Notes: generated by a model not told the origin, from the letters alone. A DNA stretch of 60,063 nucleotides from Candidatus Gottesmanbacteria bacterium (GCA_016195685.1 JACPZE010000026.1:1-60063), one strand, 5' to 3'; counted from the stretch's first letter, positions 26,895-44,630 are shown. Numbers and translations are program-made.

Positions 26895-27860
26895 ATGTTA
26901 ACGATTAAAGAAATAAAGTTAGAAGATCATCTCTCTTGGGATGATTTAATTAAAGAAAGCAGTACCGCAACTTTTTTCCAGACAAAAGAGTGGTTAACGC
27001 TTTGGGTTAAGCATTGGTGCAAAAGCGGTGAAGTAGTGATATATGGTGTATTTGATAAGTATGAGTTGATCGGTATCGCCCCTTTTCATATCAGCGATAA
27101 AATTAATATATTAGGAGTCCCTGATCCATCTCTTGGTGGTTCTTTAAGCGATTTTGGAGATATTATCGCTAAGATTTCTTATGAGAAAATTATATGGCAA
27201 TCAATTTTAGCTAAACTCAACACTCATCCGTCAGCTGGCGGATCAAAACTCAAAACTGAACTGAATTATATAAGAGAGGAATCGCCAAGTCTTAAGATAC
27301 TTAGGGAATTAGGAGGACAGATAGAAAATATGGAAGTATCTCCATTTATAGATCTGCCAAAAACGTGGGATGAATATATGTCTTCACTTACTCGGCATGA
27401 TAGGCATGAAATTAGAAGAAAAACAAGAAAAATAGAAGAGGAGAATATCACAAAAATCTGCGATGAAATTAATCCTCAAAATATCAATGACTTTTTCAGA
27501 CTTATGGTTTCCTCAAAGGAAAAGAAAAGTGATTTCTTATCTTCCAAGATGAGAGTTTTCTTAAGCGAAATGATAATACAACTGGAACAGAAAAAACTTT
27601 TGACCTTGTGTTTTTTAAAGTATGAAAACGTAAATATTGCAGCAATCCTTTTATTATTCCAAAAAGATGAAGTGTTATTGTATAATTCCGGTTTTGAGAA
27701 GAAATACTCCTATCTTTCACCTGGACTTATATTAAATATTTATGCTATAAAACAAGCAATTGAAGAGAGGAAAAGTAGATTTGATTTCTTACGCGGAGGA
27801 GAAAAATATAAATACGATTTGGGAGGCAAAAATAGGAAGCTATATAAAGTCACTTTTTGA
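26895..27860 (+). CDS. GNAT-family protein (BcsL/FemAB-like)
   Basis: ATFFQTKEWL..W, LYNSGF..KY..LSPG, FDFLRGGEKYK. Confidence 0.82.
   Translation: MLTIKEIKLEDHLSWDDLIKESSTATFFQTKEWLTLWVKHWCKSGEVVIYGVFDKYELIGIAPFHISDKINILGVPDPSLGGSLSDFGDIIAKISYEKIIWQSILAKLNTHPSAGGSKLKTELNYIREESPSLKILRELGGQIENMEVSPFIDLPKTWDEYMSSLTRHDRHEIRRKTRKIEEENITKICDEINPQNINDFFRLMVSSKEKKSDFLSSKMRVFLSEMIIQLEQKKLLTLCFLKYENVNIAAILLLFQKDEVLLYNSGFEKKYSYLSPGLILNIYAIKQAIEERKSRFDFLRGGEKYKYDLGGKNRKLYKVTF
27214..27260 (+). repeat. heptamer array interrupted by an atccgtcagctggcggat hairpin, inside the GNAT CDS
   Basis: aaactca acactca [hairpin 27226-27243] aaaactc aaaactg; encodes KLNTHPSAGGSKLKTE. Confidence 0.75.
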
Positions 27861-28606
27861 TTTTTATGGATAAAAAAATTCTTGCAGTGTTTGCCCATCC
27901 GGATGATGAAGCTTTTGGTCCCGGAGGAACTCTTGCTCGATATGCAGCAGAAGGTACAGAGATTCATATTCTGACTGCAACGCGTGGCGAGGCAGGTTTG
28001 TGGGATGAAAACTCAAAACTCAAATCTCAAAACTCAAATCTAAAAATACACAATATTAGAGAAAAAGAATTACTTAATTCCGCAAAAATATTAGGAATAA
28101 AGAAAGTAGAATTCTTGGATTTTGTCGATGGGACGCTTTCTAACTCTATCTATCACAAGCTAGCAGATAAAATTATTCAAAAAATAGATGATTTTAAACC
28201 TCAAGTGATACTTACAACAGAAAGGTTAGGGATTTCGGGTCATCTTGATCATATCGCTGTTTCTATGACTACGACATATGCATACCTTCATTCCAAATAT
28301 GCCGCTAACAAACTTTATTACGACTGTTTGACAAAAGACAGAAGGACGAAAGATCTGAATGATTATTTTGTCTATTTCCCCGAAGGATACGACAAAGAAG
28401 ATGTCACTACCGTCATAGATTTCACTCCTTACTGGGATAAAAAAGAAGCCGCTATGAAATGTCATCAAAGCCAATTCCATGACGTGAGAAGGATATTAAA
28501 AAGATGGGAAGGACGAGAAAGGACAGATCATTTCATACTTCAATTCCATAGAGGTATAAACGTGCAACTTCCAGAAACTGATCTTTTTGCTGGAATTACT
28601 CATTGA
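27857..28606 (+). CDS. PIG-L family deacetylase (MshB/BshB-like)
   Basis: AHPDDE, TRGEAG, GHLDH, HQSQ. Confidence 0.9.
   Translation: MIFMDKKILAVFAHPDDEAFGPGGTLARYAAEGTEIHILTATRGEAGLWDENSKLKSQNSNLKIHNIREKELLNSAKILGIKKVEFLDFVDGTLSNSIYHKLADKIIQKIDDFKPQVILTTERLGISGHLDHIAVSMTTTYAYLHSKYAANKLYYDCLTKDRRTKDLNDYFVYFPEGYDKEDVTTVIDFTPYWDKKEAAMKCHQSQFHDVRRILKRWEGRERTDHFILQFHRGINVQLPETDLFAGITH
28008..28042 (+). repeat. heptamer tandem array (aaa(a/t)ctc x5) inside the PIG-L CDS
   Basis: aaaactc aaaactc aaatctc aaaactc aaatcta; encodes NSKLKSQNSNLK. Confidence 0.85.
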
Positions 28607-28657
28607 CTAAAAAAATCCAGGAGTGTTATTCTGAAATAAGAGAGTGGGTGATATTTT

Positions 28658-29005
28658 ATGGTAGATACAACAGGAAATAATGAAAAAATGATGGGAGCAG
28701 TTGCTTATCTTGTGGGTCCGCTGACCGGTATTTTACTGCTTGTGACAGAAAAGAAAAATGCTTTTGTAAGATTTCATGCTATGCAGTCTACTTTGGTTTC
28801 AGGAGGTTTCATACTGTTATATGTTGTGTTAGCAATTATACCAATCATAGGGTGGCTGATACTTACTATACTTTCGTTTATTATGCCTTTGTTATCATTT
28901 ATACTCTGGATAGTTCTCATGTGGAAGGCATATAGTGGTGAAAAATATAAACTACCTTATTTTGGTGATTTAGCTGAAAAACAACTGGAGAAATTGGGAA
29001 AATAA
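28658..29005 (+). CDS. DUF4870-like membrane protein
   Basis: AVAYL, FVRFHAMQS, KAYSGEKYKLP; three TM helices. Confidence 0.8.
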   Translation: MVDTTGNNEKMMGAVAYLVGPLTGILLLVTEKKNAFVRFHAMQSTLVSGGFILLYVVLAIIPIIGWLILTILSFIMPLLSFILWIVLMWKAYSGEKYKLPYFGDLAEKQLEKLGK

Positions 29006-29643
29006 TGTTTCAAAACAGAGAAGAAGCAGGGAAATTATTAGCGGCTGAACTTTCCAAGTATAAAAATAATCAAGATGCGGTTGTGTTGGCTATTCCCAGA
29101 GGTGGAGTAGTAGTTGGTAGACAAATAGCAGATAAATTATCTCTTCCTTTAATACTTGCTGTTGTAAAGAAAATAGGAGCCCCAGGAAATCCTGAATTAG
29201 CAATTGGCGCCTTAGCTCCATCTAATACAAAATTTATAGATTGGGATTTAGTATTTCGCAGCAATGTTGGACAAGACTATTTGGATGCAGAATTGGATGC
29301 AAAAAGAAATGAGATAGAAGAAAGGGTGCAAAAGTTCAAAATCCGCAATCTTAAATCCGTCATCCGAAACAAAAAAATCATAATATTAACAGATGATGGA
29401 ATTGCCACCGGTGCAACTACTCGAGCAGCAATTAATTACATAAAAATAATAACCAAAAACCAAGAAACAATAGCCAAAATCATATTAGCCATTCCGGTAA
29501 TTGCCAAAGAAACATATGATAAAATAAAAAAAGAAGTGAACAAAATCTTTGCTTTAGAAATCCCTCAATCATTTAATGCAGTAGGGCAGTTTTACAAGGA
29601 ATTTCCACAGGTCTCTGATGAGGAGGTAATGGAACTTTTATGA
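29005..29643 (+). CDS. type I phosphoribosyltransferase-family protein
   Basis: FQNREEAG, LAIPRGGV, DDGIATGAT, AVGQFY..F.QVSDEEV. Confidence 0.88.
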   Translation: MFQNREEAGKLLAAELSKYKNNQDAVVLAIPRGGVVVGRQIADKLSLPLILAVVKKIGAPGNPELAIGALAPSNTKFIDWDLVFRSNVGQDYLDAELDAKRNEIEERVQKFKIRNLKSVIRNKKIIILTDDGIATGATTRAAINYIKIITKNQETIAKIILAIPVIAKETYDKIKKEVNKIFALEIPQSFNAVGQFYKEFPQVSDEEVMELL

Positions 29644-30239
29644 AACTAATAGTAGGCTTAGGCAATCCCGGTCCCAAATTTGAGTACACAAGACATAATA
29701 TAGGTTTCATGGTAGCTGAGCGATTGGTAAAGGATAAATTCTCACTCTTACCATCACTTAAAGCTTGGAAAATGGAGAAAAGATATCCTGCGGAAGTGTG
29801 CAAAAAAGATGAACTAGTAGTTATAAAACCCCAAACCTATATGAATCTGTCGGGACTTGCGGTAAAAAGGGTTATGGATTTTTTCAAAATAAACATTGAT
29901 GACCTTTGGGTAATCCACGATGATATTGATTTGCCGATTGGGAAAATAAGGATAAGAAAAGGAGGAGCATCAGCAGGACATCATGGGATTGATTCAATTA
30001 TCAAAAATCTCAACAGAGATGACTTCGTCCGTTTCAGATTGGGAATAGGTCGAGGCAAACTTGATAAACCCCATGGTGAAGGACATAACTTACACCGTCA
30101 TGAAGTGGAAAAATTTGTAGTTTCACCATTTCGTGACAATGAAGGGGGAGAAGTGAAGAAACTGATAAAAAATGCGGTTACCGCTCTAGAAATAGCTTCG
30201 GATAAAGGAATTCATGCAGCAATGAACAGATTTAATTAG
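29640..30239 (+). CDS. pth: peptidyl-tRNA hydrolase
   Basis: LIVGLGNPG, TRHNIGF, KPQTYMNLSG, HDDIDL, GGASAGHHG. Confidence 0.96.
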   Translation: MKLIVGLGNPGPKFEYTRHNIGFMVAERLVKDKFSLLPSLKAWKMEKRYPAEVCKKDELVVIKPQTYMNLSGLAVKRVMDFFKINIDDLWVIHDDIDLPIGKIRIRKGGASAGHHGIDSIIKNLNRDDFVRFRLGIGRGKLDKPHGEGHNLHRHEVEKFVVSPFRDNEGGEVKKLIKNAVTALEIASDKGIHAAMNRFN

Positions 30240-30885
30240 GAAGATGTTTTTTTAAGGTTATAAAAGGAACAAATATTTTTTGTTTCGAAAGTACCTTTAG
30301 CATTGAAGTTAATACCACATAAGAAATAGAGATCCCTGCTGCCATAAGTGTTCTTTCGATTATTACCTGAGGAATCAAAGTAAGCCAAATTGTTTTGGAT
30401 AGTCCAAAAGCCCAAACCCACAAGGCTCCACCAACTGCATGGGCGGTAAATGTAGCCCCTAAACTTCTTGCAAAAATATTTTTATGAAAGAAATGGGCAG
30501 CAACTGGGATAAGCCAAAACATAGAAAACTGCCATGCGCTTCGGCCGATGGGATTAATGTTAAAAGCAATGATTGCAAGTATTGGGACTATAACATTGAA
30601 AGTCCGTTTTTTCGCAAAGTAAGCAACAGCAAAAAGGGTGGGGAAGAGTCTTATAATTCCTCCGATATCAAACTTGGATCCATGAACTAAGTAATTAATT
30701 CCCTGCATTAGAAATACTGAAATTACTCCGGGTAATGTACCTAAAAATGCTCCTGCAGTGGGAGCAAAGAAATCAAAAAGAGTAAATTTTACATTTGACC
30801 CAAGAAGACGGGTGAAGGGGATTTGTAAAGCAATAAGACCGAGGATAGTAAAAATGGAAACAAAAATAAGTTGTTGTTTTTTCAT
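30232..30885 (-). CDS. probable ECF-type S-component membrane protein
   Basis: About 6 TM helices in ~215 aa, with an S-component-like FTLFDFFAPTAGAFLG pattern. Start taken at MKKQQL; substrate unknown. Confidence 0.55.
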   Translation of the reverse strand: MKKQQLIFVSIFTILGLIALQIPFTRLLGSNVKFTLFDFFAPTAGAFLGTLPGVISVFLMQGINYLVHGSKFDIGGIIRLFPTLFAVAYFAKKRTFNVIVPILAIIAFNINPIGRSAWQFSMFWLIPVAAHFFHKNIFARSLGATFTAHAVGGALWVWAFGLSKTIWLTLIPQVIIERTLMAAGISISYVVLTSMLKVLSKQKIFVPFITLKKHLPN

Positions 30886-30966
30886 TTTCCCCATTTTAGC
30901 AAATACTTGCAACCTGTCAACCCCAAAATTCTATTATTGACAGCAATCGGCTATAATGCAAACGAA

Positions 30967-32289
30967 ATGATCAAAACGTTTCCAAATGCGGTCAAATTCT
31001 TGGAAAAATATATTCCCACTCCAGATAAAAAACATCCGGGAGAGTTGGGGCTGAAAAGAATGGAATATTTAATGGAATTGTTGGGTAATCCGCAGTTAAA
31101 ATATCCAACAATTCATGTAGGCGGAACATCGGGTAAAGGATCGACATCTACCTTTATTGCTTCAATGTTAGCCACCAAATATAAAGTCGGGCTGACTACT
31201 TCTCCACATTTGGTGAAGATAAATGAACGGATTAAACTGAATGGAATGGATATAACGGATACGGATTTTGTTAGATTAATTAATAAAATAAAACCACTTG
31301 TAGAAAAAATAGAGAAGAATAAATTAGGTGCGCCTAGTTATTGGGAAATCGTCACTGCAATAACATTTTTATATTTTGATCGACAAAAAGTAGATATTGC
31401 CATAATCGAAGTAGGACTAGGAGGTAAATTTGATGCGTCAAATGTGATTAAACCGGTAGTTGCAGTAATCACCAATGTGGGACTCGATCATACTGATATT
31501 CTTGGAGATACCGTTGAGAAAATTGCCAGAGAAAAAGCAGGAATTATTAAGCAGGGTATAAAAGTCGTTTCAGCCGCTAGGCAACAATCAGTAATAAAAA
31601 TTATTGAAGAAAAATGTAAGAAAGAGAAAGCAAAGTTATCTCTTCTTCACGGAGATTTTTCATATAAAGTTGAAAAGTTGACAGAGTCTGGGATTATCTT
31701 TGATTATTTCGGCAAATTGAAGCCGAAAAACTTAAAAATTTCCCTTTTAGGAGAACATCAAATCGAAAATGCCGCATTGGCGATAAGAGCAATTGAACAT
31801 TTAACATTTAACAATCAACAATTAACAATTGACAATATACGAAAAGGACTTTTGTCTGCTTATATTCCTGGGCGATTAGAGATTATTCAAAAAAAGCCGT
31901 TAGTTGTGTTAGATGGTGCGCATAATCCGGATAAAGTGAGAGCGTTGGTAGCCTCAATTAAGAAGATTTTTCCCGGAAAAAAAATTATTGCTATTATAGC
32001 CATCAAAAATGACAAAAATGCCAGAGAAATGCTCACTCAATTATTAAAGATAAGTCATAAAGTCATATTTACCAAATTCCAATTGACTGCAGATATCGGC
32101 ATTATCAACTCCTATGATCCAGAAGAGTTACTCAAGATATCTCAAACGATTGATAAAAAGAAACAGATGATGATTATTAAAAATGCCCAAAAAGCTCTTG
32201 AAAAAGTGATAAAATCTGCAAAATCAGATGATGTGATTTTAATTACAGGATCGTTATACTTAGTAGGAGAGATAAAAAGAGAGTATTAA
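30967..32289 (+). CDS. folC: folylpolyglutamate synthase / dihydrofolate synthase
   Basis: HVGGTSGKGS, TSPHL..INERI, EVGLGGKFDASN, DGAHNP, TGSLYLVG. Start moved to ATG 30967, 9 nt after TATAAT. Confidence 0.93.
   Translation: MIKTFPNAVKFLEKYIPTPDKKHPGELGLKRMEYLMELLGNPQLKYPTIHVGGTSGKGSTSTFIASMLATKYKVGLTTSPHLVKINERIKLNGMDITDTDFVRLINKIKPLVEKIEKNKLGAPSYWEIVTAITFLYFDRQKVDIAIIEVGLGGKFDASNVIKPVVAVITNVGLDHTDILGDTVEKIAREKAGIIKQGIKVVSAARQQSVIKIIEEKCKKEKAKLSLLHGDFSYKVEKLTESGIIFDYFGKLKPKNLKISLLGEHQIENAALAIRAIEHLTFNNQQLTIDNIRKGLLSAYIPGRLEIIQKKPLVVLDGAHNPDKVRALVASIKKIFPGKKIIAIIAIKNDKNAREMLTQLLKISHKVIFTKFQLTADIGIINSYDPEELLKISQTIDKKKQMMIIKNAQKALEKVIKSAKSDDVILITGSLYLVGEIKREY
31794..31835 (+). repeat. heptamer tandem array (6 degenerate t(t/c/g)aaca(a/t) units) inside folC
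   Basis: tgaacat ttaacat ttaacaa tcaacaa ttaacaa ttgacaa = 42 nt; encodes EHLTFNNQQLTIDN. Confidence 0.85.
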
Positions 32290-32305
32290 GTAATAAGTAT
32301 CAAGT

Positions 32306-32638
32306 ATGAAAAAAATAACTCAATCTTCTTCCATGCAAAAAGTAGGGGATGTCTTGGTGAAATTTAATCCTTTGGAGGATAAATACATTTCCCGTGAGTT
32401 TCAATCATATGGGTATTATCTGTCTGAGACGCTAAATGATCTAAAACATAGAGGTATCTATATGAGATTGGCCAAAACTATGCCCCGGGCTCTTTTGGAA
32501 AAAGCTTTATCCTATGTAAAGGATGCAAAAGTAACGAGAAAAGGGGCTCTTTTTATGTGGAAGTTAAAAGAACTTGGAGCATGGCCGAAAAAGGAAAAAC
32601 TTACCAAAAGAAAGCAAGTAGAAGATATACCTTTTTAA
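32306..32638 (+). CDS. hypothetical helical basic protein ending EDIPF
   Basis: 110-aa ORF in the same direction as folC; no family recognised with certainty. Confidence 0.75.
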   Translation: MKKITQSSSMQKVGDVLVKFNPLEDKYISREFQSYGYYLSETLNDLKHRGIYMRLAKTMPRALLEKALSYVKDAKVTRKGALFMWKLKELGAWPKKEKLTKRKQVEDIPF

Positions 32639-32793
32639 CTCCTCATTTACACTCTCTATCCTTATCTATTATGCTAAGGAGACGGGTCTAAATAACATAC
32701 TCATATTATTTAGATTGCGCTCCTTTGTGGCGCAAGGCAATAAGTAACATGGACTTACATTATTTACGTCAGCGCCCTAAATAGACAGGTATT

Positions 32794-33066
32794 ATGAACA
32801 AACGGGCCCATATTTTTATAAGAGGAGATGTCGTTGGAGTAGGATTCCGCTCCTGGATAGCGTCAAACGCAAAGGAATTAAAACTCACGGGCTGGGTAAA
32901 AAATGCTGACCAAAGATTGGTTGAAGCAGTTATTGAAGGGTCAGAGGAAAACGTGAAGCAAATGGTTGAGCGGTGCAATGATGGTCCTGAAGTGGCATGG
33001 GTGGAGAAAGTAGATGTGCAATGGGAAGAAGTAACAGATGAATTTGAAGGGTTTGAGGTAGAATGA
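32794..33066 (+). CDS. acyP: acylphosphatase
   Basis: GDVVGVGFR, GWVKN, VEAVIEG. Confidence 0.92.
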   Translation: MNKRAHIFIRGDVVGVGFRSWIASNAKELKLTGWVKNADQRLVEAVIEGSEENVKQMVERCNDGPEVAWVEKVDVQWEEVTDEFEGFEVE

Positions 33067-33070
33067 GAAC

Positions 33071-33124
33071 CAGCCTCGATATCGAATTATCTCGGGTCCT
33101 GTCACCCGTTGGTATCTTCGGCTG
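33071..33124. repeat. hairpin whose apex is the joined family A arms (empty-site form)
   Basis: cgggtcctgtcacccg at 33093-33108 inside a cagcc...ggctg stem. Confidence 0.7.
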
Positions 33125-33133
33125 CTTTGATAC

Positions 33134-33817
33134 TTGATACCCTATGATAAACGTGTTTACAATATAATTGTGAAGCATCAGGTTTTCATAGTCTGGTTTA
33201 TCATTTTCCTCGCTTGGGCATTTTATCGGGCCAATTTTTTCTTTCCTGAAGGAGTAGATGAATTTCTCATAAAGCCACTTATATTTGTTCTTCCCGTACT
33301 CTACGTTGTTTTAATCCGTGAAAAAAAGAAACTAGGTGATCTTGGGTTATTGCCAAAACAAAAAGATCTTTTTGTAGATCTTTATATTGGAGTAGTAATA
33401 GGAGTTTTATTTGCTCTTGAAGGTCTTTTGGTAAATTATCTGAAGTATTCAAGATTTTCTTTCTCTCCGATTATGGCGAGTAGGATCAGCGGGGGATTAG
33501 GATGGTTTTTTCTTCTGAATATGGCTACATCACTTTGGGAAGAGATTTTAGGTCGGGGTTATCTTTACCAAAGACTTTATAAATTAAGCAATAATCAGTT
33601 TGGAGCCGCTTTTACATCCAGTTTTCTGTTTCTTCTTCTTCATGTGCCGATACTTTTTACTAGACTTCATTTAACCGATACTTCTTTGATAGTTTATCCT
33701 CTTTCAATTTTAATCTTGGGGATTACAAATAGTTATATTTTTACCCTACGCAAATCATTAACACTTCCCATTCTCATCCATACCTTCTGGAATATGACTG
33801 TGGCGCTTTATTTATAA
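33134..33817 (+). CDS. CPBP (Abi/CAAX) intramembrane metalloprotease
   Basis: EEILGRG, FLLLH, HTFWN. Confidence 0.9.
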   Translation: MIPYDKRVYNIIVKHQVFIVWFIIFLAWAFYRANFFFPEGVDEFLIKPLIFVLPVLYVVLIREKKKLGDLGLLPKQKDLFVDLYIGVVIGVLFALEGLLVNYLKYSRFSFSPIMASRISGGLGWFFLLNMATSLWEEILGRGYLYQRLYKLSNNQFGAAFTSSFLFLLLHVPILFTRLHLTDTSLIVYPLSILILGITNSYIFTLRKSLTLPILIHTFWNMTVALYL

Positions 33818-33845
33818 TGTTATTCAGCGTATAATCTGAGTAAAG

Positions 33846-33899
33846 ATGAATCTGTGGACGATATTTTTAACAGGACTTCTTACAGGCGGACTGACTTAG
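33846..33899 (+). pseudogene. 5' remnant of a DsbD/TauE-cupredoxin paralog
   Basis: Encodes MNLWTIFLTGLLTGGLT*; the gene at 36176 begins MNLWTVFFTGLFTGGLT. Confidence 0.85.
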
Positions 33900-33916
33900 G
33901 CGCCAGGTGGAATCTA

Positions 33917-33954
33917 TTGACTTGAATAGAATATTGGTACTACAATATGTAGTA
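33917..33954 (+). promoter_or_regulatory. sigma70-type promoter with a BlaI/CopY-type operator
   Basis: TTGACT-18-TACAAT; palindrome TACTAC-AATAT-GTAGTA at 33938-33954 overlaps the -10 and the ATG. Confidence 0.8.
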
Positions 33955-34334
33955 TGAAAGCGAAATCTCTTGGAGAGCTTGAACAGCAGATAATGGATAT
34001 TGTATGGGAATACAAGCATTGTTCAGCACGAGATATTTTAAATAGATTAGAAACTGAAAAAAAACTTGCCTATACAACTATTGCTACTATTCTTCATCGG
34101 CTACATGGTAAAGGACTTGTTGAGAGAAAAGGAGATGGGCTAGCATATATTTATTCTCCTAAACTTACAAAAGAATCCTACAGTAAAAATCTTGCGCAGT
34201 CATTTTTAAAGAAATTCATCCACTCGTTTGGTGACGTCGCTATTGCTTCATTTGCTGCAAGTATAGATCGACTTCCTAAGGGAAAACGTGAATATTTTCT
34301 TACGCTCTTAGAAAAATATGATAAAACCAAATAA
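33954..34334 (+). CDS. BlaI/MecI/CopY-family repressor
   Basis: LGELEQQIMDIVW, LAYTTIATILHRL..KG, YIYSP; no CopY C-terminal CxC. Confidence 0.92.
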   Translation: MKAKSLGELEQQIMDIVWEYKHCSARDILNRLETEKKLAYTTIATILHRLHGKGLVERKGDGLAYIYSPKLTKESYSKNLAQSFLKKFIHSFGDVAIASFAASIDRLPKGKREYFLTLLEKYDKTK

Positions 34335-35310
34335 AAATCTACTTACATTTTTAAGTCTGGCACTTTTCTTAGGTTTAAGCGTTTTTACAGCATCACAAAG
34401 GATTTTACCTTTACTTCTAGAACATAGCGTTTATTATTGCCAAACTTTTATTCACTCTCTGTCTCTGCGTATACCCCATCAAATAGGACTTATTATTCCA
34501 ATACTACTTGCAGTATTGGTATCGGTCGCAGCAATGAAATTCTTTATCATTTATATCCAAACATATCGATTAAGAAAGAAATTGATTGCAAAATCTAAAT
34601 CACAAAAAGATTTTTCAGATCTTCTTAAAAAGTTAGGACTTGCCAATCAAGCATATCTTGTTAAAAGTGATAAACCCTTTGCTTTCTGTTTCGGGATTCG
34701 CAGACCTAAGATTTATGTATCAACAGCTACTGTTTCCCTCATGAACGAGGCAGAATTGGAAGCAATTTTACTTCATGAGAAGTATCATCTGGATAATAAA
34801 GATACTCTCACTATGTTGCTGGCCTCCATTTGTCAATCGCTTTTTCCTTTTTTCCCACTTATCTCGGATCTTTTACGAAATTTCCGAATTGAGCGAGAAA
34901 TTGCCGCAGATCAAGAAGCAATACGTAAACTTGGTGATTCAGAAGTGCTTATTTCTGTACTGAAAAAGTTTCTTACCGCGCCTTCGATTGCTATTGCTAC
35001 TGCACCAGCAATTGCTGATTTTGATACCTTAGAATTACGGATTAAGGCGCTTGTAAAACATGATTTTTATTTTAGAAAGTTTCGCATGGTTAACATAATT
35101 CTTAGTATAATTGCAGTGGTAACACTTAGTACTTTGATATTAGTGCCTGTACATGCAGTAGAACTTCATGCTGATAATCAGGATGTGATGATGGTTTGCC
35201 TACAAGGGGATGCATGTTCAGCATGGTGTAAAGACCATAACACGGTAAAACCATATTCTCAAATACAGAATGCTTCATATCCGTATACTCCTGTGGCACC
35301 TCGGATGTAA
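34318..35310 (+). CDS. M56-family (BlaR1-like) membrane metallopeptidase with a Cys-rich C-terminus
   Basis: PFAFCFG..RPKIYVS, HEKYH, EIAAD; ends CLQGDACSAWC; no penicillin-binding domain. Confidence 0.88.
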   Translation: MIKPNKNLLTFLSLALFLGLSVFTASQRILPLLLEHSVYYCQTFIHSLSLRIPHQIGLIIPILLAVLVSVAAMKFFIIYIQTYRLRKKLIAKSKSQKDFSDLLKKLGLANQAYLVKSDKPFAFCFGIRRPKIYVSTATVSLMNEAELEAILLHEKYHLDNKDTLTMLLASICQSLFPFFPLISDLLRNFRIEREIAADQEAIRKLGDSEVLISVLKKFLTAPSIAIATAPAIADFDTLELRIKALVKHDFYFRKFRMVNIILSIIAVVTLSTLILVPVHAVELHADNQDVMMVCLQGDACSAWCKDHNTVKPYSQIQNASYPYTPVAPRM

Positions 35311-35318
35311 TTTGACAC

Positions 35319-35358
35319 TTGACAAAACAAGCAAATCTCTACTACATTAAGTAGTAGA
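35319..35358 (+). promoter_or_regulatory. second promoter/operator of the same type, upstream of dsbA
   Basis: TTGACA-18-TACATT; palindrome TCTACTAC-ATTAA-GTAGTAGA at 35338-35358. Confidence 0.82.
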
Positions 35359-35395
35359 TATTATTTATTAGGGCGAAGTTAAGGAGACATTTCCT

Positions 35396-36166
35396 ATGTT
35401 AGAAGAAACAAAAAGTACAAGCAATTTCAATATGACAACTATCCTTATTGGTCTTCTTATCGTTGCTTCTTTTGTACTCGGGTCCTTGTGGACAAAAGTG
35501 CAAGTGTTAGAAAAAGGAAATGCAGCAGTTCCCAGCGCACAAGTGGGTACTGTGGGAAAAAACGCAGGTACAGGTGCAGCAGTAGCTCAACAACCTCCAC
35601 CTGCTCAGCAAGCTACTAAAAAGCCTGAACTTACAAGCGATGATCGTATACGGGGAAATAAAAATGCGAAGATTGCTCTCATTGAATATTCTGATTACGA
35701 ATGTCCATTCTGTAAACGGTTTCATCCCACTATGCAGCAAGTCATGAAAGAGTATGGCGATAAAGTGAAATGGGTCTATCGAGATTTTCCCTTAAACTTT
35801 CACCAAAATGCTCAGAAAGAAGCAGAGGGAGGTCGATGTATAAATGAACTGGGAGGCAATGATGCATTCTGGAAATACACTGATGCTATTTTTGACCGCA
35901 CCACCTCAAACGGTACAGGGTTTGCGCTTGATAAACTTGGACCACTTGCAGCTGAAGTGGGTGTAAATCAGGCAAAGTTTCAATCTTGTCTTGACTCTGG
36001 TAAATACACTAAAGCAGTACAAGATCAAGAAGCATTGGGATCATCAGAAGGCGTGACAGGTACACCGGGAACGATTATACTCACTGCCAACGGTGATACG
36101 CAGCTTATACCTGGCGCATTGCCTTTTGAGCAAGTGAAGCCAATGATTGATAAAGCATTACAATAA
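35396..36166 (+). CDS. membrane-anchored DsbA-family oxidoreductase
   Basis: N-terminal TM helix, EYSDYECPFC, YRDFPL, GVTGTP cis-Pro loop. Confidence 0.9.
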   Translation: MLEETKSTSNFNMTTILIGLLIVASFVLGSLWTKVQVLEKGNAAVPSAQVGTVGKNAGTGAAVAQQPPPAQQATKKPELTSDDRIRGNKNAKIALIEYSDYECPFCKRFHPTMQQVMKEYGDKVKWVYRDFPLNFHQNAQKEAEGGRCINELGGNDAFWKYTDAIFDRTTSNGTGFALDKLGPLAAEVGVNQAKFQSCLDSGKYTKAVQDQEALGSSEGVTGTPGTIILTANGDTQLIPGALPFEQVKPMIDKALQ

Positions 36167-36175
36167 GAAGTATCT

Positions 36176-37219
36176 ATGAATTTGTGGACAGTTTTCTTTA
36201 CAGGACTTTTTACTGGTGGTTTAACCTGTCTTGCTGTACAGGGAGGACTCTTGGCGGCAACATTAGCCCAGCGTGAAGAGCAACGACTGGAGAGTGAAAC
36301 AAAAAAAACTGGCAACGCACTTCCCATTCTTTTCTTTTTAGGAGCAAAACTCATCGCCTATACCATTTTAGGATTTCTTCTTGGAGGCTTAGGTTCAGTG
36401 TTCCAATTATCACTTACTGCATCAATAATTATGCAATTTGCAGTGATTATCTTCATGTTTGGTACAGCCGGAAATCTTCTCAACCTTCACCCAATCTTTC
36501 GCTACTTTGTGATCCAGCCTCCACGATTTTTAACTCGGTTAGTACGTGACCAGTCAAAAAGTAACGATTTTTTTGCTCCAGCCCTTCTAGGAGCGTTTAC
36601 CGTATTTATTCCCTGCGGTACAACACAAGCGATGATGGCGCTTGCCATAGCATCTGGTAAGCCAATACTTGGCGCTCTTATTCTGTTTATTTTCATTTTG
36701 GGAACTTCACCTATCTTTTTTATCTTAGGATATTTTACGACGAAACTGGGAGATGCGATGCACCAAAGATTTGTAAGGATTGCAGCATATGCAATTATCC
36801 TTATTGCTTTATTTAATTTAGATGGAGCACTCGCTCTTTCTGGAAGCCCTTTTACCTTTAAAGGGACATTTACTGACGTCTATTGCACAATCTCATGGTG
36901 TGATAATTCTATAGCATATGCAGCAAGCGGCCAAGCTGCTGGAGCTACGACTCAAGAAGCAACCATTAATATCGAATCGTCCGGATATAATCCTGCTCAA
37001 CTTGCAATAAAAGCAGGGTCTCAAGTTACTTTGAAACTCGTTAATACTGGCGGCGGTGGTTGTACATCAGCTTTCACGATACCAAGCTTAGGTATAAGAA
37101 AAATTGTTCCTATAGGCAGTTCAGATACAGTAACTTTTACAGCGCCAAATGAGCCAGGAGGAGAACTAGCATTTATGTGTAGTATGGGAATGTTTAGAGG
37201 TAAACTGAAATTGGTTTAA
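36176..37219 (+). CDS. DsbD/CcdA-like (TauE/SafE) membrane protein with a C-terminal cupredoxin domain
   Basis: TM cysteines GGLTCLAVQGG and FIPCG; C-terminal GGCT..MCSMGMFRG. Confidence 0.85.
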   Translation: MNLWTVFFTGLFTGGLTCLAVQGGLLAATLAQREEQRLESETKKTGNALPILFFLGAKLIAYTILGFLLGGLGSVFQLSLTASIIMQFAVIIFMFGTAGNLLNLHPIFRYFVIQPPRFLTRLVRDQSKSNDFFAPALLGAFTVFIPCGTTQAMMALAIASGKPILGALILFIFILGTSPIFFILGYFTTKLGDAMHQRFVRIAAYAIILIALFNLDGALALSGSPFTFKGTFTDVYCTISWCDNSIAYAASGQAAGATTQEATINIESSGYNPAQLAIKAGSQVTLKLVNTGGGGCTSAFTIPSLGIRKIVPIGSSDTVTFTAPNEPGGELAFMCSMGMFRGKLKLV

Positions 37220-37227
37220 ATGATTAT

Positions 37228-37455
37228 ATGACAACACAAAAAAAACTTCTTAAAATAAATGGTATGCACTGCACTAGTTGTGCTATGAATATAGACGGTG
37301 AGCTTGAAGATACAAAAGGAGTTATCCAGTCAAATACAAACTACGCAAAACAGGTAACAGAAGTAGAATTTGAGGTAGGTAAGATAAATCACGAGAAAAT
37401 AATAGAGATTATTGAAACTGTTGGATACGAAGCGAAACTCATAGATGAAAAATGA
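37228..37455 (+). CDS. CopZ-like heavy-metal chaperone
   Basis: GMHCTSC HMA motif. Confidence 0.9.
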   Translation: MTTQKKLLKINGMHCTSCAMNIDGELEDTKGVIQSNTNYAKQVTEVEFEVGKINHEKIIEIIETVGYEAKLIDEK

Positions 37456-38150
37456 ATGCGCAGGTGAAAAAATTACTAATTCTTACGGGATTACTCCTCG
37501 TTACTCTCGTGGTTGGTTACTTTATAATTGCCCCAGTACAAGTTCTAGAGCGCATAATTCATCCACAAGCTAGAAATAAATTTCAGACAATAGTAGATAA
37601 AATACCGACACAAGCTGGAAAAGCCTTATTTCTTCGGCAAAGCAATAACTTAACAAGAGCGGTTGATCCTGAGCTTGTTGACTTAGATAGTCAAATTATT
37701 TCATGTAACCCAGATGTGACAGGACTTTTCTCGAGTAATCCCACCATTGGTGGCAGTTGTCTTGCAGGGTCAACGACACTTCAGACAACAAAAGGCATGT
37801 ATTTAGGAGGACAGTGCTGTGGTGCTTTAACAGACACGAAAGAATATCATCAGCATTTAGAAGCACTACAAAAGTATAAAAATATTCCTGATATAGTGCT
37901 TGATCCTTATAAAACACCCATAACTCTTGCAAAAAAATGGATCGATTATGATAACCAAACTACACTCAGTGATAAAGATCAGCAAATATATAAACAAGCA
38001 CTTACAGTTTCTCATGAAGGGCCATGCTGTTGTAAATGTTGGCATTACTACGTCAATGAAGGCATTGCCAAGAAACTGATTAAGGATTATGGCTATTCTG
38101 CCCAACAAGTAGCTGATTTTTGGGATGTTTCAGATATTTGCGGGGTATAA
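37452..38150 (+). CDS. membrane-anchored Cys-rich hypothetical protein
   Basis: N-terminal TM helix; GGQCCG, HEGPCCCKCWH, terminal DICG. Confidence 0.8.
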   Translation: MNAQVKKLLILTGLLLVTLVVGYFIIAPVQVLERIIHPQARNKFQTIVDKIPTQAGKALFLRQSNNLTRAVDPELVDLDSQIISCNPDVTGLFSSNPTIGGSCLAGSTTLQTTKGMYLGGQCCGALTDTKEYHQHLEALQKYKNIPDIVLDPYKTPITLAKKWIDYDNQTTLSDKDQQIYKQALTVSHEGPCCCKCWHYYVNEGIAKKLIKDYGYSAQQVADFWDVSDICGV

Positions 38151-38214
38151 GATTTATATGTCATTATGAAGTATAACTGGATGGTTAACGAACGTTGATA
38201 CTATTGCTCGTAAG

Positions 38215-38280
38215 ACTCCGGGTCAATTGACATTTATGTGCGGGATGGGCATGTATAAAGGCAGGATACATATCATTTAA
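38215..38280 (+). pseudogene. 3' remnant of a cupredoxin-tailed gene
   Basis: Startless frame TPGQLTFMCGMGMYKGRIHII*, homologous to the end of the 36176 protein (GELAFMCSMGMFRGKLKLV*). Confidence 0.8.
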
Positions 38281-38282
38281 TT

Positions 38283-38504
38283 ATGCTCAAGAAATCTGTT
38301 TTTAAAATCAGCGGTATGCATTGCAATACTTGTTCTTTAAATATAGATTGGGAATTGGAAGAAACAGATGGGGTAAAGGAAGTAAAGACAAGCTATGCAG
38401 CTCAAAAAACAGAGTTGACATTTGACGACGACTTAATATCTTCAAAGAAAATTATAGAGATTATAAAAAAGACCGGTTACGAAGCTAATTTAATTAAAGA
38501 ATAG
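38283..38504 (+). CDS. second CopZ-like chaperone
   Basis: GMHCNTC HMA motif. Confidence 0.9.
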   Translation: MLKKSVFKISGMHCNTCSLNIDWELEETDGVKEVKTSYAAQKTELTFDDDLISSKKIIEIIKKTGYEANLIKE

Positions 38505-39262: not shown

Positions 39263-41632
39263 CTAAACTTTCGATCTTTTCAGAAGTAGGGAATTAGATA
39301 CTACTGATATTGAAGAAGTAGCCATCGCAAGAGAAGCAAACATAGGATTTAAAAGTATTCCCCAGATAGGATAAAGGATTCCCATTGCTATAGGAATAAG
39401 TACTACATTATAAGCAAAAGCCCAAAATAGATTGAATTTAATAGTTCGCATAGTTTTTTTGGAAAGATTTATCGCTATAGCTACGGATTTCAATTCTTTA
39501 TTTATAAGTGTAATATCCGCCGCCTCGATAGCTACATCAGTCCCGCTACCCATGGCAATTCCTACATCGGCGGAAGCAAGTGCAGGTGCATCATTTATAC
39601 CGTCACCGACAAAAGCAATTACATTTTTAGATTTTAATTTACGGGTCCTGCCGCTCAGGTATCCCAAGCGACGATACATCTCCGCTTGGGACCCCTCCTT
39701 CGCGTCACCCGTAGTTAAAATTATTGTTTTATCTCTTAAATTCTGCACGATTTTCTCTTTCTCCTGAGGTAAAACTTCAGCAAAAACCTTATCTTTATCT
39801 ATTCCTGCAAGTTTTCCTATAGCTTGGGCTGTTTGAGTATTGTCTCCTGTGACCATATAAACATCGATTTTCATCTTCTTGAGTGTATTTACGGCCTCTC
39901 TTGCATCGGGTTTAAGAGTATCGGCTATAGCAAAGAGAGCAACATTTTTCTTATTGATAGCTACATAGGCTAAAGTTTTTCCTTCTTTAGCCCACAGATT
40001 TGCTTTTTTATCCAGTTCACTGCAACGCATGACTTTTTCCTTTTCCATAAGCTTCTTATTACCCACAAGAATATTGACTCCATCTGCCCTTCCTTGTATT
40101 CCATGTCCTTCAATTGCATAAACTTTATCAGTTTTTAATTCCCTGGCTTTATTTTTTAAATATTCAATGATAGCAAAAGATAATGAGTGCTCTGAGTGTT
40201 TTTCCAGAGAATAGATTAATGAAGAAATATAATCGTGAATTGATAAATTATTAGGGATATTAATACCTAAGTCAGTCCCAACATCATCAAGCTTTTCCAT
40301 GAAAGAGAAATCAGTGACTTTGGGTTTTCCGGATGTCAAAGTACCGGTTTTGTCAAAAATAACAGCGTTTATCTTATGTGCAAGTTCCAGACTTTCAGCA
40401 TCTTTAATAAGTATTCCATGTTGGGCACCTAATCCTGTTCCTACCATAATTGCAGTAGGGGTAGCCAGACCCATCGCACAGGGACAGGCAATGATCAAAA
40501 CTGCAATAGCATTAAGCATGGCAAATAGAAAAACAGGTGTTGGACCAAAAATGTACCATACAACGAAAGTAAAAATGGCCAGCATAATCACAATTGGTAC
40601 AAAGTAAGAAGATATTATATCTGCAATTCGTTGTATTGGCGCTTTACTTCCTTGGGCTTCTTGGACGAGCTTAATTATCTGGGCGAGCATGGTGTCGCTT
40701 CCGATTTTAGTTGCCTTGAAAGTAAAAGAGCCTGTTTTATTGATAGTTGCCCCAATTACGTTATCTTCTTTACCTTTCTCAACGGGAATACTTTCTCCGG
40801 TAACCATGGATTCATCGATCGATGATTGGCCTTCAATAATAATTCCGTCAACTGGAATTTTTTCTCCGGGACGAACGCGGATCAAATCTCCGATCATAAC
40901 TTCTTCTATCGGAATATCAATTTCTTTACCGTTTCGAATTACTCGAGCTGTTTTTGCCTGAAGGCCTATCAATTTCTTAATCGCTTCAGATGTTCCGGCT
41001 TTTGCCCGCGCTTCTAAATATCGGCCCAAGAGTATTAGAGAGATTATGATGGTGGCTACGTCGAAGTAGGGAAGGGGTTCTATACCGGTATTTTTTATAA
41101 ACTGTGGTAAAAAAGTTACAAATACCGAGTATCCATAGGCTACAGTAGTACCGAAGGCAACCAATGTATCCATGTTGGCAGTTCGATGACGTAGGGCTGG
41201 AATTGTAGCGCGGTAAAAGATGGAGCCGATCCAAAACTGGACAGGAGTAGCCAAAAATAATTGGAAGTAGAAATTTTTTAGGATAAATGGTGCAGTATCC
41301 ATGAGTCCCGGGAAGCTGCCCCAAAGTATAAGTCCTCCAATAATCAGGCTGAAAATTACTTTATCCCGTAATTCAATTAATTCCTTTTTCTTTTCTAACT
41401 CTTCCGAAGACTTATTATTTTCTTCAGCTAGTATCGCTTTATAACCGACATTCACAACTGCCGTTTCCAGATCAATATCTTTGACTTTTTGAGGATCGAT
41501 AGTAACTGTAGCTTTCTCGGTAGCTAGATTGACGTTGGCATCTGTGACACCAGCTACTCTCCCTAAGGATTTCTCCAATACTCTAACGCACGATGCGCAA
41601 TGCATGCCTTTGATGGTAAAAATTTTTTTCAC
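39263..41632 (-). CDS. copA: P1B-type copper-translocating ATPase carrying a repeat-derived insertion
   Basis: GMHCASC, TGES, CPC, DKTGT, GDGIND, YN; ~30-aa insert before NVIAFVGDG. Confidence 0.95.
39642..39711. repeat. family A palindromic element in frame inside copA
   Basis: 62/70 identical to the intergenic copy at 43540-43609. Confidence 0.92.
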
Positions 41633-41639
41633 ATTCGCT

Positions 41640-41683
41640 CCCTTCGTTCCTCAGGATAAACCCTTCGGTTGCTCAGTGTAAAC
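41640..41683. repeat. two tandem family C REP-like units
   Basis: cccttcgttcctcaggataaac then cccttcggttgctcagtgtaaac. Confidence 0.75.
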
Positions 41684-41689
41684 ATATTT

Positions 41690-42043
41690 TTATTTAACAA
41701 TAATTTTTCCATGAAACATACTCATACCGCAGGAGAAGGGGAACGTACCAGTTGATTTAGGCGTTATGACAACGCTTACTTTTTCATTCAGCGGCAGATA
41801 TTTTTTAATCTTAAACTCCGGTAAAATTACTTCCTCAAGACAAGAATTCTGGTCTTTTCTTATAAAATTTAGAGTCGTGGCTTGGTTTTGTTTCAATGCT
41901 ATATTGGAAGGATTATATCCGCCGTCAACTGTAATATCTATTTCATCTTTTGCCTCTACAGCTTCCTCTTTTTTGCCAAAGAAAAACCAGTAGGTGAAAA
42001 TTACTCCAATCAAACCGGTTATTATAACGATGAATTTATCCAT
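41690..42043 (-). CDS. membrane-anchored cupredoxin (CupA-like)
   Basis: TM helix, GGYNP, SCLEEV, FSCGMSM. Confidence 0.88.
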   Translation of the reverse strand: MDKFIVIITGLIGVIFTYWFFFGKKEEAVEAKDEIDITVDGGYNPSNIALKQNQATTLNFIRKDQNSCLEEVILPEFKIKKYLPLNEKVSVVITPKSTGTFPFSCGMSMFHGKIIVK

Positions 42044-42308
42044 TTTTTTGCGATTTTTTAAATACTGCCATCACTTCATCTATGACTTCTTTTGAGTTTC
42101 CCTTCTTGATGGCATCAACGACACATGTATTTAAATGATTATTAAGAACCAATGAATCAATTTCCTTCAGCGCAGCTTCTACCGCTTGTAGTTGATGAAG
42201 TACATCTATACAGTAAACATCTCTCTCTACCATTTCCCGGACTTTTTTCAGATGTCCTTCGGTGATCTGCAGTCTTCTGATAATTGATGATCTATTACCA
42301 TTTCTCAT
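42036..42308 (-). CDS. csoR: CsoR-family copper-sensing repressor
   Basis: RLQITEGHL, YCIDVLHQ, NHLNTCV (Cys-His-Cys ligands). Confidence 0.9.
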   Translation of the reverse strand: MRNGNRSSIIRRLQITEGHLKKVREMVERDVYCIDVLHQLQAVEAALKEIDSLVLNNHLNTCVVDAIKKGNSKEVIDEVMAVFKKSQKNG

Positions 42309-43122: not shown

Positions 43123-43191
43123 CTACTTTTCAAAAGGATCATTTTCTGATAATATTCAATTATGAATTCAATAAAGTAAAAGAGGGATTAT

Positions 43192-43515
43192 ATGTCAGAC
43201 GTTACAGTTACTGATTCCACATTTGATACAGAAGTCGTTAAATCCACTACACCAGTATTAGTTGATTTCTGGGCAGTTTGGTGCGGACCATGCCGTATGC
43301 AGGATCCGATTCTTGAAGAAATTATAAAAGAGTACAAGGGGAAAGTGAAAATTACGAAGTTAAATGTAGATGAGAATCCACAGTCAGCAGCAAAATATGG
43401 AGTTATGAGTATCCCCACATTGCTACTTTTCAAAAATGGAGAGATAGTCAAACAGATGATAGGGGTGCAGAGTAAAGAGACGTTGGTAGAGGAATTTAAA
43501 AAAGTTGTGAGTTAA
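43192..43515 (+). CDS. trxA: thioredoxin
   Basis: [17 protein letters not shown]. Confidence 0.96.
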
Positions 43516-43539
43516 TATTTAAGCTCGCATTATGATTTA

Positions 43540-43609
43540 CGGGTCCTGCCGCTCGGGTATCCCATACTACGATACATCTCCGTCTGGGATCCCTCCCTCG
43601 CGTCACCCG
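43540..43609. repeat. family A palindromic element (intergenic), followed by a degenerate heptamer run at 43627-43680
   Basis: 62/70 identical to the copA copy. Confidence 0.92.
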
Positions 43610-43682
43610 TTGTTAAAACTAATGTTTGAAAATTAAGCATTGTAAATTCATTAAAAATTGAAAATTTAAAATTAAAAATTGT

Positions 43683-44630
43683 GTGAATATGTACGACATA
43701 ATTATTCTCGGTTCCGGCCCTGCAGGACTCACTGCTGGAATTTATGCAATACGGGCGGGGCATAAAACTCTGCTTATTCCCGGCATCCGCTGGGGTGGGC
43801 AACTCATGTTGACAACACTGGTTGAAAACTATCCTGGATTTGTAGATGGTATCCAAGGACCAGATCTGATGATGGATATGCGTAAACAGGCAGAAAGGCT
43901 TGGAGTAGAGTTTTTGAATACTGATTTTACCCAGGCAGATTTTTCATCAAAACCCTTTAAAATTACTGCAGATGGGAAAGTTTATGAGGCAAAGTCGGTG
44001 ATTATCGCCACCGGTGCAGACAGTATTTGGTTAAATATCCCAGGTGAGATGCAACTGAGGGGAAGAGGAGTATCTACTTGTGCTGTATGCGATGCGTTTT
44101 TCTTCAAAGGGCGCGATACAGTGGTTGTAGGAGGAGGGGACAGCGCTATGGAAGATGCATTGGTCCTCTCTAAGGTAGCAAAATCGGTAACCATAATTCA
44201 CAGGCGTGATAAATTCCGCGCCTCCAAAGCGATGCAGGATAGAGTTTTTAAAGAAGCAAAAATTAAAGTTTTATGGAATAAAACAGTCATCAAATATATA
44301 GGTACGGATCATGTTGCCGGAATAATTTTAAAGGATATTCAAACAGGCAAAGAGGAAGAATTTAAAACAGATGGAGTATTTTTAGCAATTGGACATAAAC
44401 CCAATACGGAAAAGTTTGTGGGGTTAGAATTGGATAGTAAAGGATATATAGTCAGAAAAGAAATAAAAGATGAGTCAGGACTCCTGGGGTATAGAACGGG
44501 AACGAGTGTTCCTGGTGTATTTGTGGGGGGAGACGTACATGATTACCGTTACAAACAGGCGATTACAGCAGCAGGTTTTGGCTGCATGGCGGCTCTAGAC
44601 GCGGACCGATGGCTCCAGGAAAATAAATAA
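43683..44630 (+). CDS. trxB: thioredoxin reductase
   Basis: GSGPAG, CAVCD, GGGDSA, GDV..Y.QAITAAG; ATG at 43689 is the likely start. Confidence 0.95.
   Translation: MNMYDIIILGSGPAGLTAGIYAIRAGHKTLLIPGIRWGGQLMLTTLVENYPGFVDGIQGPDLMMDMRKQAERLGVEFLNTDFTQADFSSKPFKITADGKVYEAKSVIIATGADSIWLNIPGEMQLRGRGVSTCAVCDAFFFKGRDTVVVGGGDSAMEDALVLSKVAKSVTIIHRRDKFRASKAMQDRVFKEAKIKVLWNKTVIKYIGTDHVAGIILKDIQTGKEEEFKTDGVFLAIGHKPNTEKFVGLELDSKGYIVRKEIKDESGLLGYRTGTSVPGVFVGGDVHDYRYKQAITAAGFGCMAALDADRWLQENK

Follow-up and report, generated by a model that had tools for sequence, protein, structure and literature searches.

The 60,063-nucleotide stretch of DNA analyzed here (hereafter, the window) comes from an uncultivated, Gottesmanbacteria-like groundwater bacterium of the Candidate Phyla Radiation (CPR), and one region of it, at positions 33846–38280, raises the question of how a 4.3-kb operon came to lie between the two ends of a gene belonging to the same family as one of the operon's own genes. 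The family in question encodes fusions of a DsbD_2 domain with a cupredoxin domain, and the operon (hereafter, the cassette) has six genes, encoding a repressor, an M56 protease, a DsbA-like protein, a DsbD_2-cupredoxin protein, a CopZ-like metallochaperone, and a cysteine-rich protein, orf232. It is highly probable that a foreign, regulated operon was joined into the resident gene at codon 17/18, displacing it in place by a xenologue, while the resident copZ gene (hereafter, copZ') was kept. Such an in situ xenologous gene displacement, with an operon as the carrier, is an ordinary, though clean, case of a known kind.

Domains were assigned to the open reading frames (ORFs) with Pfam, and promoter and motif scans, BLASTN, and local alignment against 300 shuffled sequences were also used. 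The comparison loci were contigs carrying either CPBP orthologues (the resident type: L014–L022, L027, and L084) or cassette-type genes (L001–L008 and L023–L026). The amino acid identity of the CPBP protein to that of the window is 79% in L014–L019, 83% in L020, 82% in L021, 81% in L022, 84% in L027, and 72% in L084. All the features described below between positions 33170 and 38504 are on the plus strand.

The conserved left anchor of the locus is a resident gene for a CPBP (Rce1-like) intramembrane protease (33170–33817; Pfam PF02517, E 1e-14), orthologues of which, 72–84% identical in amino acids, were recovered by protein search from Gottesmanbacteria-type contigs. It is followed by the first 17 codons of the resident DsbD_2-cupredoxin gene (33846–33896), which begin with an ATG at 33846, read MNLWTIFLTGLLTGGLT, and run into a TAG at 33897–33899. 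All 17 residues are identical to those of the intact CPBP-adjacent genes of L020, L021, and L017, and 14 of the 17 to those of the cassette copy that starts at 36176. At the DNA level, the stub differs from these orthologues at 7–10 nucleotides, and its alignment scores against the resident orthologues (55–70) are reached by none of the 300 shuffles; 39 of 54 nucleotides are identical to the cassette copy. Because every one of the nucleotide differences is synonymous, the stub suggests that the disruption was recent relative to the split from the relatives at 79–83% identity.

The last 21 codons of the same gene (38215–38277, TPGQLTFMCGMGMYKGRIHII) and a TAA stop (38278–38280) lie on the other side of the cassette, at 38215–38280. 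This tail is identical at 14–16 of its 21 residues to the resident C-termini (16 of 21 for TAGQLAFMCGMGMYRGVITII, for example), a match that 0–1 of the 300 shuffles equals, and it is closer to these than to the end of the cassette copy (...GGELAFMCSMGMFRGKLKLV). It has changes (A to T and R to K) at two positions that do not vary in either clade. The three CPBP-adjacent orthologues of L020, L021, and L017 provide the best combined match to both remnants among 123 family members and, as judged by these identities, both remnants derive from one gene, which is the vertically inherited orthologue. The resident gene has thus lost approximately 0.92 kb, from codon 18 to about codon 324, leaving the 17-codon stub, the 21-codon tail, and an intact copZ' (38283–38504, 73 amino acids; Pfam PF00403), the ATG of which lies 2 nucleotides past the stop of the remnant. 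The preliminary description of this DNA had already read the two ends as the first 17 and the last 21 codons of a single DsbD_2-cupredoxin gene followed by copZ, and the comparison with the 123 homologues bears this out. It had also proposed that the whole resident unit was overwritten by a larger, regulated version, which holds for the DsbD_2-cupredoxin gene but not for copZ, given that copZ' is intact and shares 68–73% of its amino acids and 74–76% of its nucleotides with the resident copZ of the relatives, against 53% amino acid identity to the cassette copZ.

The homology to cassette-free relatives ends at 33895–33897 and restarts at 38215 (local alignment to L020) or 38233 (BLASTN), so that the breakpoints proposed previously are correct to within 1–2 nucleotides. 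The extension of the remnants inward, over 33897–33953 and 38151–38214, was rejected, as the similarity of these intervals to the resident gene is not significant against shuffles, and a further extension of the tail (DTI...) back to 38197, offered by tblastn, is marginal. Each junction contains a spacer. The left spacer (33897–33936, 40 nucleotides) holds the -35 hexamer of the cassette promoter (TTGACT, 33917–33922) and has no significant match to the resident gene, and BLASTN homology to other cassettes begins only at 33937. For the right spacer (38151–38214, 64 nucleotides), similarity searches against the resident gene and other loci gave nothing significant.

The polarity of the event comes from the relatives. 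In L014–L019, L020, L021, and L022, a DsbD_2-cupredoxin gene of 345–348 amino acids stands immediately 3' of the CPBP gene, with no cassette, and this gene is intact in L014–L021 and frameshifted in appearance in L022. A gene for an HMA/CopZ protein of 72–73 amino acids comes next wherever the contig reaches it (L014–L018, L020, and L021, but not L019 or L022). This is the gene order that had been predicted for relatives of the window, and it was seen in five related lineages. On the left, the window runs collinear with L014 over approximately 7 kb (26920–33895), and the right flank is common to the relatives only through copZ'. As read from these contigs, the intact arrangement of CPBP, DsbD_2-cupredoxin, and copZ is shown to be ancestral, because the interior of a gene cannot be regenerated. 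In the ancestral state, the DsbD_2-cupredoxin gene next to CPBP abuts copZ, as if translationally coupled. Two of the relatives have peculiarities of their own. In L022, positions 3759–3959 hold an ORF of 66 amino acids, with the homology going on downstream, which is an apparent frameshift or assembly error, and in L021 a 23S-rRNA-IVP (bAvd-like) gene (1831–2190) stands between the resident DsbD_2-cupredoxin gene and copZ.

As this is a metagenome assembly, a chimera is a general possibility, as is a cassette that had carried the remnants along from an earlier host. The region is covered, at 99–100% identity, by Logan contigs of four metagenome runs on groundwater, all from a single study, and the contigs of all four runs span both junctions independently, at 100% identity; no alternative joint occurs in them, bearing in mind that assembler contigs hide rare variants. 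The remnants flank the cassette in neither L001 nor L005, and the 5' stub directly continues the conserved region between CPBP and the resident gene that is found in the relatives. Beyond its general possibility, nothing speaks for either a chimera or travelling remnants, and both are extremely improbable. The displacement itself is shared only by the same population, represented by 100% identical contigs (L011–L013).

The displacing gene (36176–37219) encodes a DsbD_2-cupredoxin fusion of 347 amino acids (Pfam PF13386 and PF13473, Cupredoxin_1), with relatives that are 83–88% identical. Contigs retrieved for such relatives (P0002 and P0004) carry the same module of repressor, M56, DsbA, DsbD_2-cupredoxin, and HMA genes in unrelated settings, where it follows a Fic gene in L001–L003, and precedes genes for DUF3105 and a multicopper oxidase (Cu-oxidase), together with mer genes, in L005–L008. 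By BLASTN, the nucleotide homology to these copies over 33937–37433 is 80% for L001 and 66–74% for L005, and nothing in the window matches the 7.7-kb flank of L001 at the nucleotide level. The cassette proteins of the window and L001 are 69–88% identical, and two housekeeping proteins, HPRT and a serine hydrolase, only 51% and 30%, respectively, while in the syntenic relative L014 the housekeeping proteins are 66–80% identical to those of the window. Because a nucleotide identity of 80% is shared with a cassette whose host has housekeeping proteins that are only 30–51% identical, the cassette appears to have been acquired horizontally from a distantly related CPR bacterium.

One rival account would do without a donor, by making the internal gene a duplicate of the resident gene that arose within this genome. 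The two copies are indeed members of one family, and a copZ gene follows both of them, a pairing that the repeat finder recovered independently, matching the remnants and copZ' with the internal gene and its copZ (repeat families D1–D3). The DsbD_2-cupredoxin sequences nevertheless fall into two clades, with amino acid identities of 84–88% among the cassette-linked copies, 76–80% among the resident copies, and 63–65% between the groups, and copZ splits in the same manner. The internal copy is thus 84–88% identical to copies in unrelated contigs and only 63–65% identical to the resident clade, and the whole five-gene module recurs elsewhere, together with its operators, which makes a local origin of the internal gene most improbable. 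The two features that define an in situ xenologous displacement are both present, namely, an orthologue at the same position in relatives and a displacing gene from a different clade. As a separate observation, the cassette family is itself a mosaic, given that the DsbD_2-cupredoxin protein is 84% identical and the M56 protein 59% identical to those of L005, and both are 85–88% identical to those of L001. These figures imply recombination between modules within the cassette family.

The means by which the cassette was joined is less clear-cut than its origin. No integrase, transposase, or recombinase gene was found in the Pfam scans of all the ORFs between 32.3 and 44.6 kb, which agrees with the preliminary description, and there are no terminal inverted or direct repeats at the ends of the cassette. 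A transposon, an insertion sequence, an integron cassette, and an integrative island were rejected on both these grounds. Homeologous replacement, which had been offered as one possible mechanism, is not supported either, as the cassette starts with a promoter and a repressor gene and ends with orf232, and these ends are unlike the resident gene, so that the internal paralogue is not the source of the crossover points. Joining would then have been illegitimate, without a recombinase or flanking homology. Either both ends were joined at once, or the cassette went in first, and the resident gene lost its dead 3' part later.

The first of these alternatives turns on the tetranucleotide GACT, which occurs at both junctions (33893–33896 and 38214–38217), within 1 nucleotide of both breakpoints, and on the remnants being in frame when joined, both of which were pointed out in the preliminary description and confirmed as observations. 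A linear donor would have been joined at GACT on both sides, with codons 18–324 being lost together. A shared tetranucleotide within 1–2 nucleotides of two random positions arises in only 2–7% of trials, which lends this mechanism some weight. The tetranucleotide was found post hoc, though, and no standard model of illegitimate joining predicts it, since such joining calls for each junction to show microhomology of the donor with the recipient, rather than for one tetranucleotide at both. The G at 38214 falls outside the detectable resident homology, and agreement in frame has a one-in-three chance, without selective meaning for a relic of 38 codons. The tetranucleotide and the in-frame join are probably coincidental, and a one-step, microhomology-mediated replacement is unlikely, the GACT microhomology being weak. 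A target-site duplication, the only process expected to leave one 4-mer at both junctions, was also rejected as the source of GACT, as it would involve two target positions approximately 0.92 kb apart in the intact gene.

In the second alternative, the cassette would have been inserted after codon 17, and a later deletion, halting before the initiation region of copZ', would have taken the 3' part of the resident gene and possibly some further genes of the cassette. Relatives of the cassette do have extra genes past orf232, that is, an ORF of 326 amino acids with DUF3105 next in L023, and the 64-nucleotide right spacer matches nothing. The proximity of copZ' to the stop of the remnant, and the AAAGGCAGGA located approximately 15 nucleotides upstream of its ATG, inside the remnant, are also in line with a deletion of this type, and the tail may have been spared as the carrier of the ribosome-binding region of copZ'. 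The changes at the two invariant residues of the tail fit relaxed constraint. The intermediate was not found, however, and the homology of a putative truncated gene start at 38166 to the 326-amino acid family is unconvincing; the reading of 38166–38198 as a stub of the gene that follows orf232 elsewhere was rejected, being unsupported by comparison. Insertion followed by deletion can be held only tentatively, but is at least as plausible as the one-step mechanism, the genome being reduced and deletion-prone.

A number of points weigh against the displacement of the resident gene by a foreign operon, or limit its detail. The donor sequence with its own flanks was not found, and a two-step history fits as well as a one-step event. 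The 40- and 64-nucleotide junction spacers have no traceable source, with only the operator matching other loci. The right flank past copZ', which contains a DUF6970 gene and copA, is not syntenic in any relative retrieved, and no empty site was seen, as a result, with both flanks of the window. In wider searches with single proteins, a scan of species-representative genomes for a close relative by the FolC-like protein returned only Bacteroidota matches that were 33–35% identical, a metagenome scan with the DUF6970 membrane protein returned no match, and a metagenome scan with CopA returned relatives at no more than 60% identity, none of them with the window's right flank. Composition also lacks a transfer signal. 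The comparison of codon usage between the cassette and its flanks, which had been suggested as a check, gave a GC content at third codon positions (GC3) of 0.22–0.30 for the cassette, against a window mean of 0.31 (standard deviation 0.04); this is within about 2 standard deviations, and is uninformative, although it fits a donor that was another low-GC CPR organism. Finally, the copper regulation and the biochemical role of each cassette protein are inferred only from domain content and analogy.

The concept of in situ xenologous gene displacement, together with that of mosaic operons, reportedly belongs to Omelchenko et al. in 2003. The present case resembles it in that a resident gene was swapped at the same position for a homologue from a foreign clade, with the flanks being kept, and differs in that the displacing gene came within a larger operon with its own regulator, and in that the displaced gene can still be seen at both of its ends, so that the direction and the breakpoints are fixed. 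Homology-facilitated illegitimate recombination (HFIR) during natural transformation (PMC3240628) is similar in the lack of a recombinase, the loss of recipient DNA, and joints with short or no homology, but it requires an anchor of homology at one end, with a microhomology joint at the other, and no anchor is detectable at either end of the cassette, an anchor in or beyond copZ' being possible. The effector modules of the type VI secretion system of Vibrio cholerae (PMC5361080) are displaced sequentially, and there too an incoming module takes over a fixed locus from the resident module, relics of which stay behind downstream, but flanking homology drives the exchange there, and the relics are selected, whole orphan immunity genes, in contrast to the gene ends and the intact copZ' found here.

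What the foreign operon brought with it, besides a xenologue, appears to be a regulatory switch. The repressor gene (33954–34334, 126 amino acids) encodes a winged-helix protein of the BlaI/PetR family (Pfam PF03965, Penicillinase_R, E 2.7e-25), and the gene of the M56/M48 membrane metalloprotease (34318–35310, 330 amino acids; Pfam PF05569, E 5e-19) overlaps it by 17 nucleotides. The HEKYH motif of the protease is invariant in the alignment, and the protein ends in a tail of approximately 60 amino acids, rich in cysteine, histidine, and methionine; of the five sequences aligned, three have such a C-terminal tail, which is extracytoplasmic. Within the 5-kb region, the best two promoter-like sites are TTGACT-18-TACAAT (33917–33946) and TTGACA-18-TACATT (35319–35348), and the promoter and motif scans placed an operator-like palindrome over each of them. 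The first palindrome, O1 (33938–33954, TACTACAATATGTAGTA), overlaps the -10 hexamer TACAAT (33941–33946) and the start codon of the repressor gene, and the second, O2 (35338–35358, TCTACTACATTAAGTAGTAGA), overlaps the second promoter-like site. These are the only palindromes of the CTACA-N3-TGTAG type that the motif search found in the 60-kb window. The same type precedes both the repressor gene and the DsbA gene in L001, L005, L008, L023, and L026; in L025, a contig that starts too late to include the repressor gene, it precedes the DsbA gene. It was not found in the resident-type loci checked (L014, L020, L021, L022, and L027). The 3' end of the cassette promoter's -10 hexamer lies 7 nucleotides 5' of the repressor ATG, with no Shine-Dalgarno sequence, and the mRNA from which the repressor is translated is probably leaderless.

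The closest characterized system to this switch is the copper-dependent PetR/PetP of Synechocystis, in which an M48/M56 protease degrades a BlaI-family repressor when copper is present (10.1101/2020.07.31.226407). The two have in common a BlaI-family repressor and a protease without a beta-lactam sensor, overlapping genes, and an inverted-repeat operator of the form xACA-N3-TGTx. The cassette combines PF03965 and PF05569 in one operon with predicted TACA/TGTA-type operators over its promoters, which are features of the BlaI/BlaR1 type, and of the PetR/PetP type in particular. The systems differ in their targets, which are envelope thiol and copper genes here, rather than petE and petJ, and in the half-site of the operator, predicted to be TACA here, and GACA (GACA-N3-TGTC) in Synechocystis. 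BlaR1 proper, a beta-lactam sensor, was rejected as an identity for the 330-amino acid protein, in which Pfam matches only M56/M48 and no penicillin-binding sensor domain was found, and a CopY-type repressor was rejected for the lack of a C-terminal cysteine cluster, as none of the five aligned repressors, all of which end in LLEKxDKTK, has the CxCx4-5CxC motif. By this analogy, the repressor is predicted to bind both palindromes over the -10 hexamers, and the M56 protease to remove it upon envelope copper or thiol stress, with the DsbA-like, DsbD_2-cupredoxin, CopZ, and orf232 proteins being induced as a result. The displaced function would, in this case, have passed from an apparently unregulated to a copper-inducible state.

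The genes under this putative control include that of the DsbA-like thioredoxin-fold protein (35396–36166, 256 amino acids; Pfam PF13462 and PF01323), which has an N-terminal transmembrane segment and a CPFC motif, and that of the CopZ-like HMA metallochaperone (37228–37455, 75 amino acids; Pfam PF00403), which is 58–64% identical to the cassette-linked copZ of L004 and L005. The copper link of the cassette is a genomic association with copZ, copA, and csoR. A neighboring resident copper system (39263–42308) lies on the minus strand, and consists of copA (39263–41632), a stand-alone gene for a cupredoxin with a transmembrane anchor, which provides a third Cupredoxin_1 domain and has a FSCGMSMFHGKIIV tail (41690–42043), and a CsoR-type repressor gene (42036–42308). 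Two differently regulated copper modules are thus found side by side in this genome, and the copA loci of CPR genomes often carry DsbD_2-cupredoxin and copZ genes. The cargo of the cassette, standing next to a csoR-cupredoxin-copA operon, resembles the copper-tolerance logic of Scs, in which a DsbD-like protein (ScsB) and a DsbA-like protein (ScsC) work as a pair (PMC10907172, PMC5524982). The likeness lies in the copper-linked pairing of a membrane protein of the DsbD/CcdA type with a DsbA-like protein, and the differences in the membrane protein, which is here a DsbD_2 (PF13386) fused to a cupredoxin, without the periplasmic domains of ScsB, and in the host, which is a CPR bacterium.

The last gene of the cassette, orf232 (37452–38150), is an ORF for a cysteine-rich protein with CC and CCCKC motifs, and matches no Pfam family. 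In L023 and L026, its homologues are part of repressor-M56-DsbA operons; in L024 and L025, contigs that begin past the regulator genes, they stand directly 3' of the DsbA-like gene; L001–L008 have no counterpart. Going by this linkage, orf232 is part of the same modular family as the cassette. Its homologues are 55–65% identical in Patescibacteria, Thaumarchaeota (Nitrosotalea and Nitrosopumilales), and Pacearchaeota, an unusually high conservation across domains, which suggests inter-domain transfer.

The site itself is also changeable. In L084, CPBP and a DsbD_2-cupredoxin-HMA pair are 7.2 kb apart, with other genes for metal, sulfur, and redox functions between them. In L027, the closest CPBP relative found, CPBP is followed directly by trxA-trxB, which match positions 43190–44627 of the window, and the 9.4 kb between 33819 and 43189, compared with L027 800–865, are absent, that is, the remnants, the cassette, copZ', the DUF6970 gene, copA, the gene for the 117-amino acid cupredoxin, csoR, and two genes for transmembrane proteins. 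Gene order in these contigs marks the position 3' of CPBP as a variable metal/redox islet in the lineage. A wider scenario, which is speculative and rather improbable, is that repressor-M56-DsbA operons with twin operators are self-regulated, recombinase-free "plug-in" modules for envelope copper and thiol stress, which are exchanged among CPR bacteria, have orf232 as a cargo shared with Thaumarchaeota and Pacearchaeota, and prefer resident homologues at a hot spot 3' of CPBP.

The same DNA contains a GC-rich palindromic element of approximately 85–125 nucleotides, with conserved ends (ACGGGTCCTGCCGCTC...CTCGCGTCACCCGT), which occurs three times in the window and once in L022, in both orientations. 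The copies are located in copA (39631–39729, minus strand; strong fold, z -6.3), between trxA and trxB (43529–43627), in a TrxB-like ORF (element at 55561–55668, ORF at 54904–55968), and in the FolC gene of L022 (L022 1198–1304). The element forms in-frame insertions of about 28–35 codons in CopA, where the insertion corresponds to residues 634–661 relative to A. fulgidus CopA, in the TrxB paralogue (about 34 amino acids), and in the FolC of L022 (+105 nucleotides). The whole window returned no match to Rfam at the gathering threshold, and the element belongs to no Rfam family. Rickettsia palindromic elements (RPEs) are selfish DNA located inside protein-coding genes, and the present element resembles them, here in a CPR bacterium; it may be of more interest than the displacement itself.

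The value of the case lies in its clean polarity, its CPR host, and its defined regulon. It represents a polarized, breakpoint-resolved transfer at the level of an operon, with displacement in place, in a CPR/Patescibacteria genome and without the machinery of mobile elements, and bears on the way in which small genomes exchange accessory functions, the uptake of free DNA followed by illegitimate joining being a plausible route. It also defines a PetR/PetP-like regulon in the CPR, composed of a repressor, a protease, and two conserved predicted operators, and this regulon provides a testable handle on genes that are routinely misannotated as "sulfite exporter TauE/SafE".

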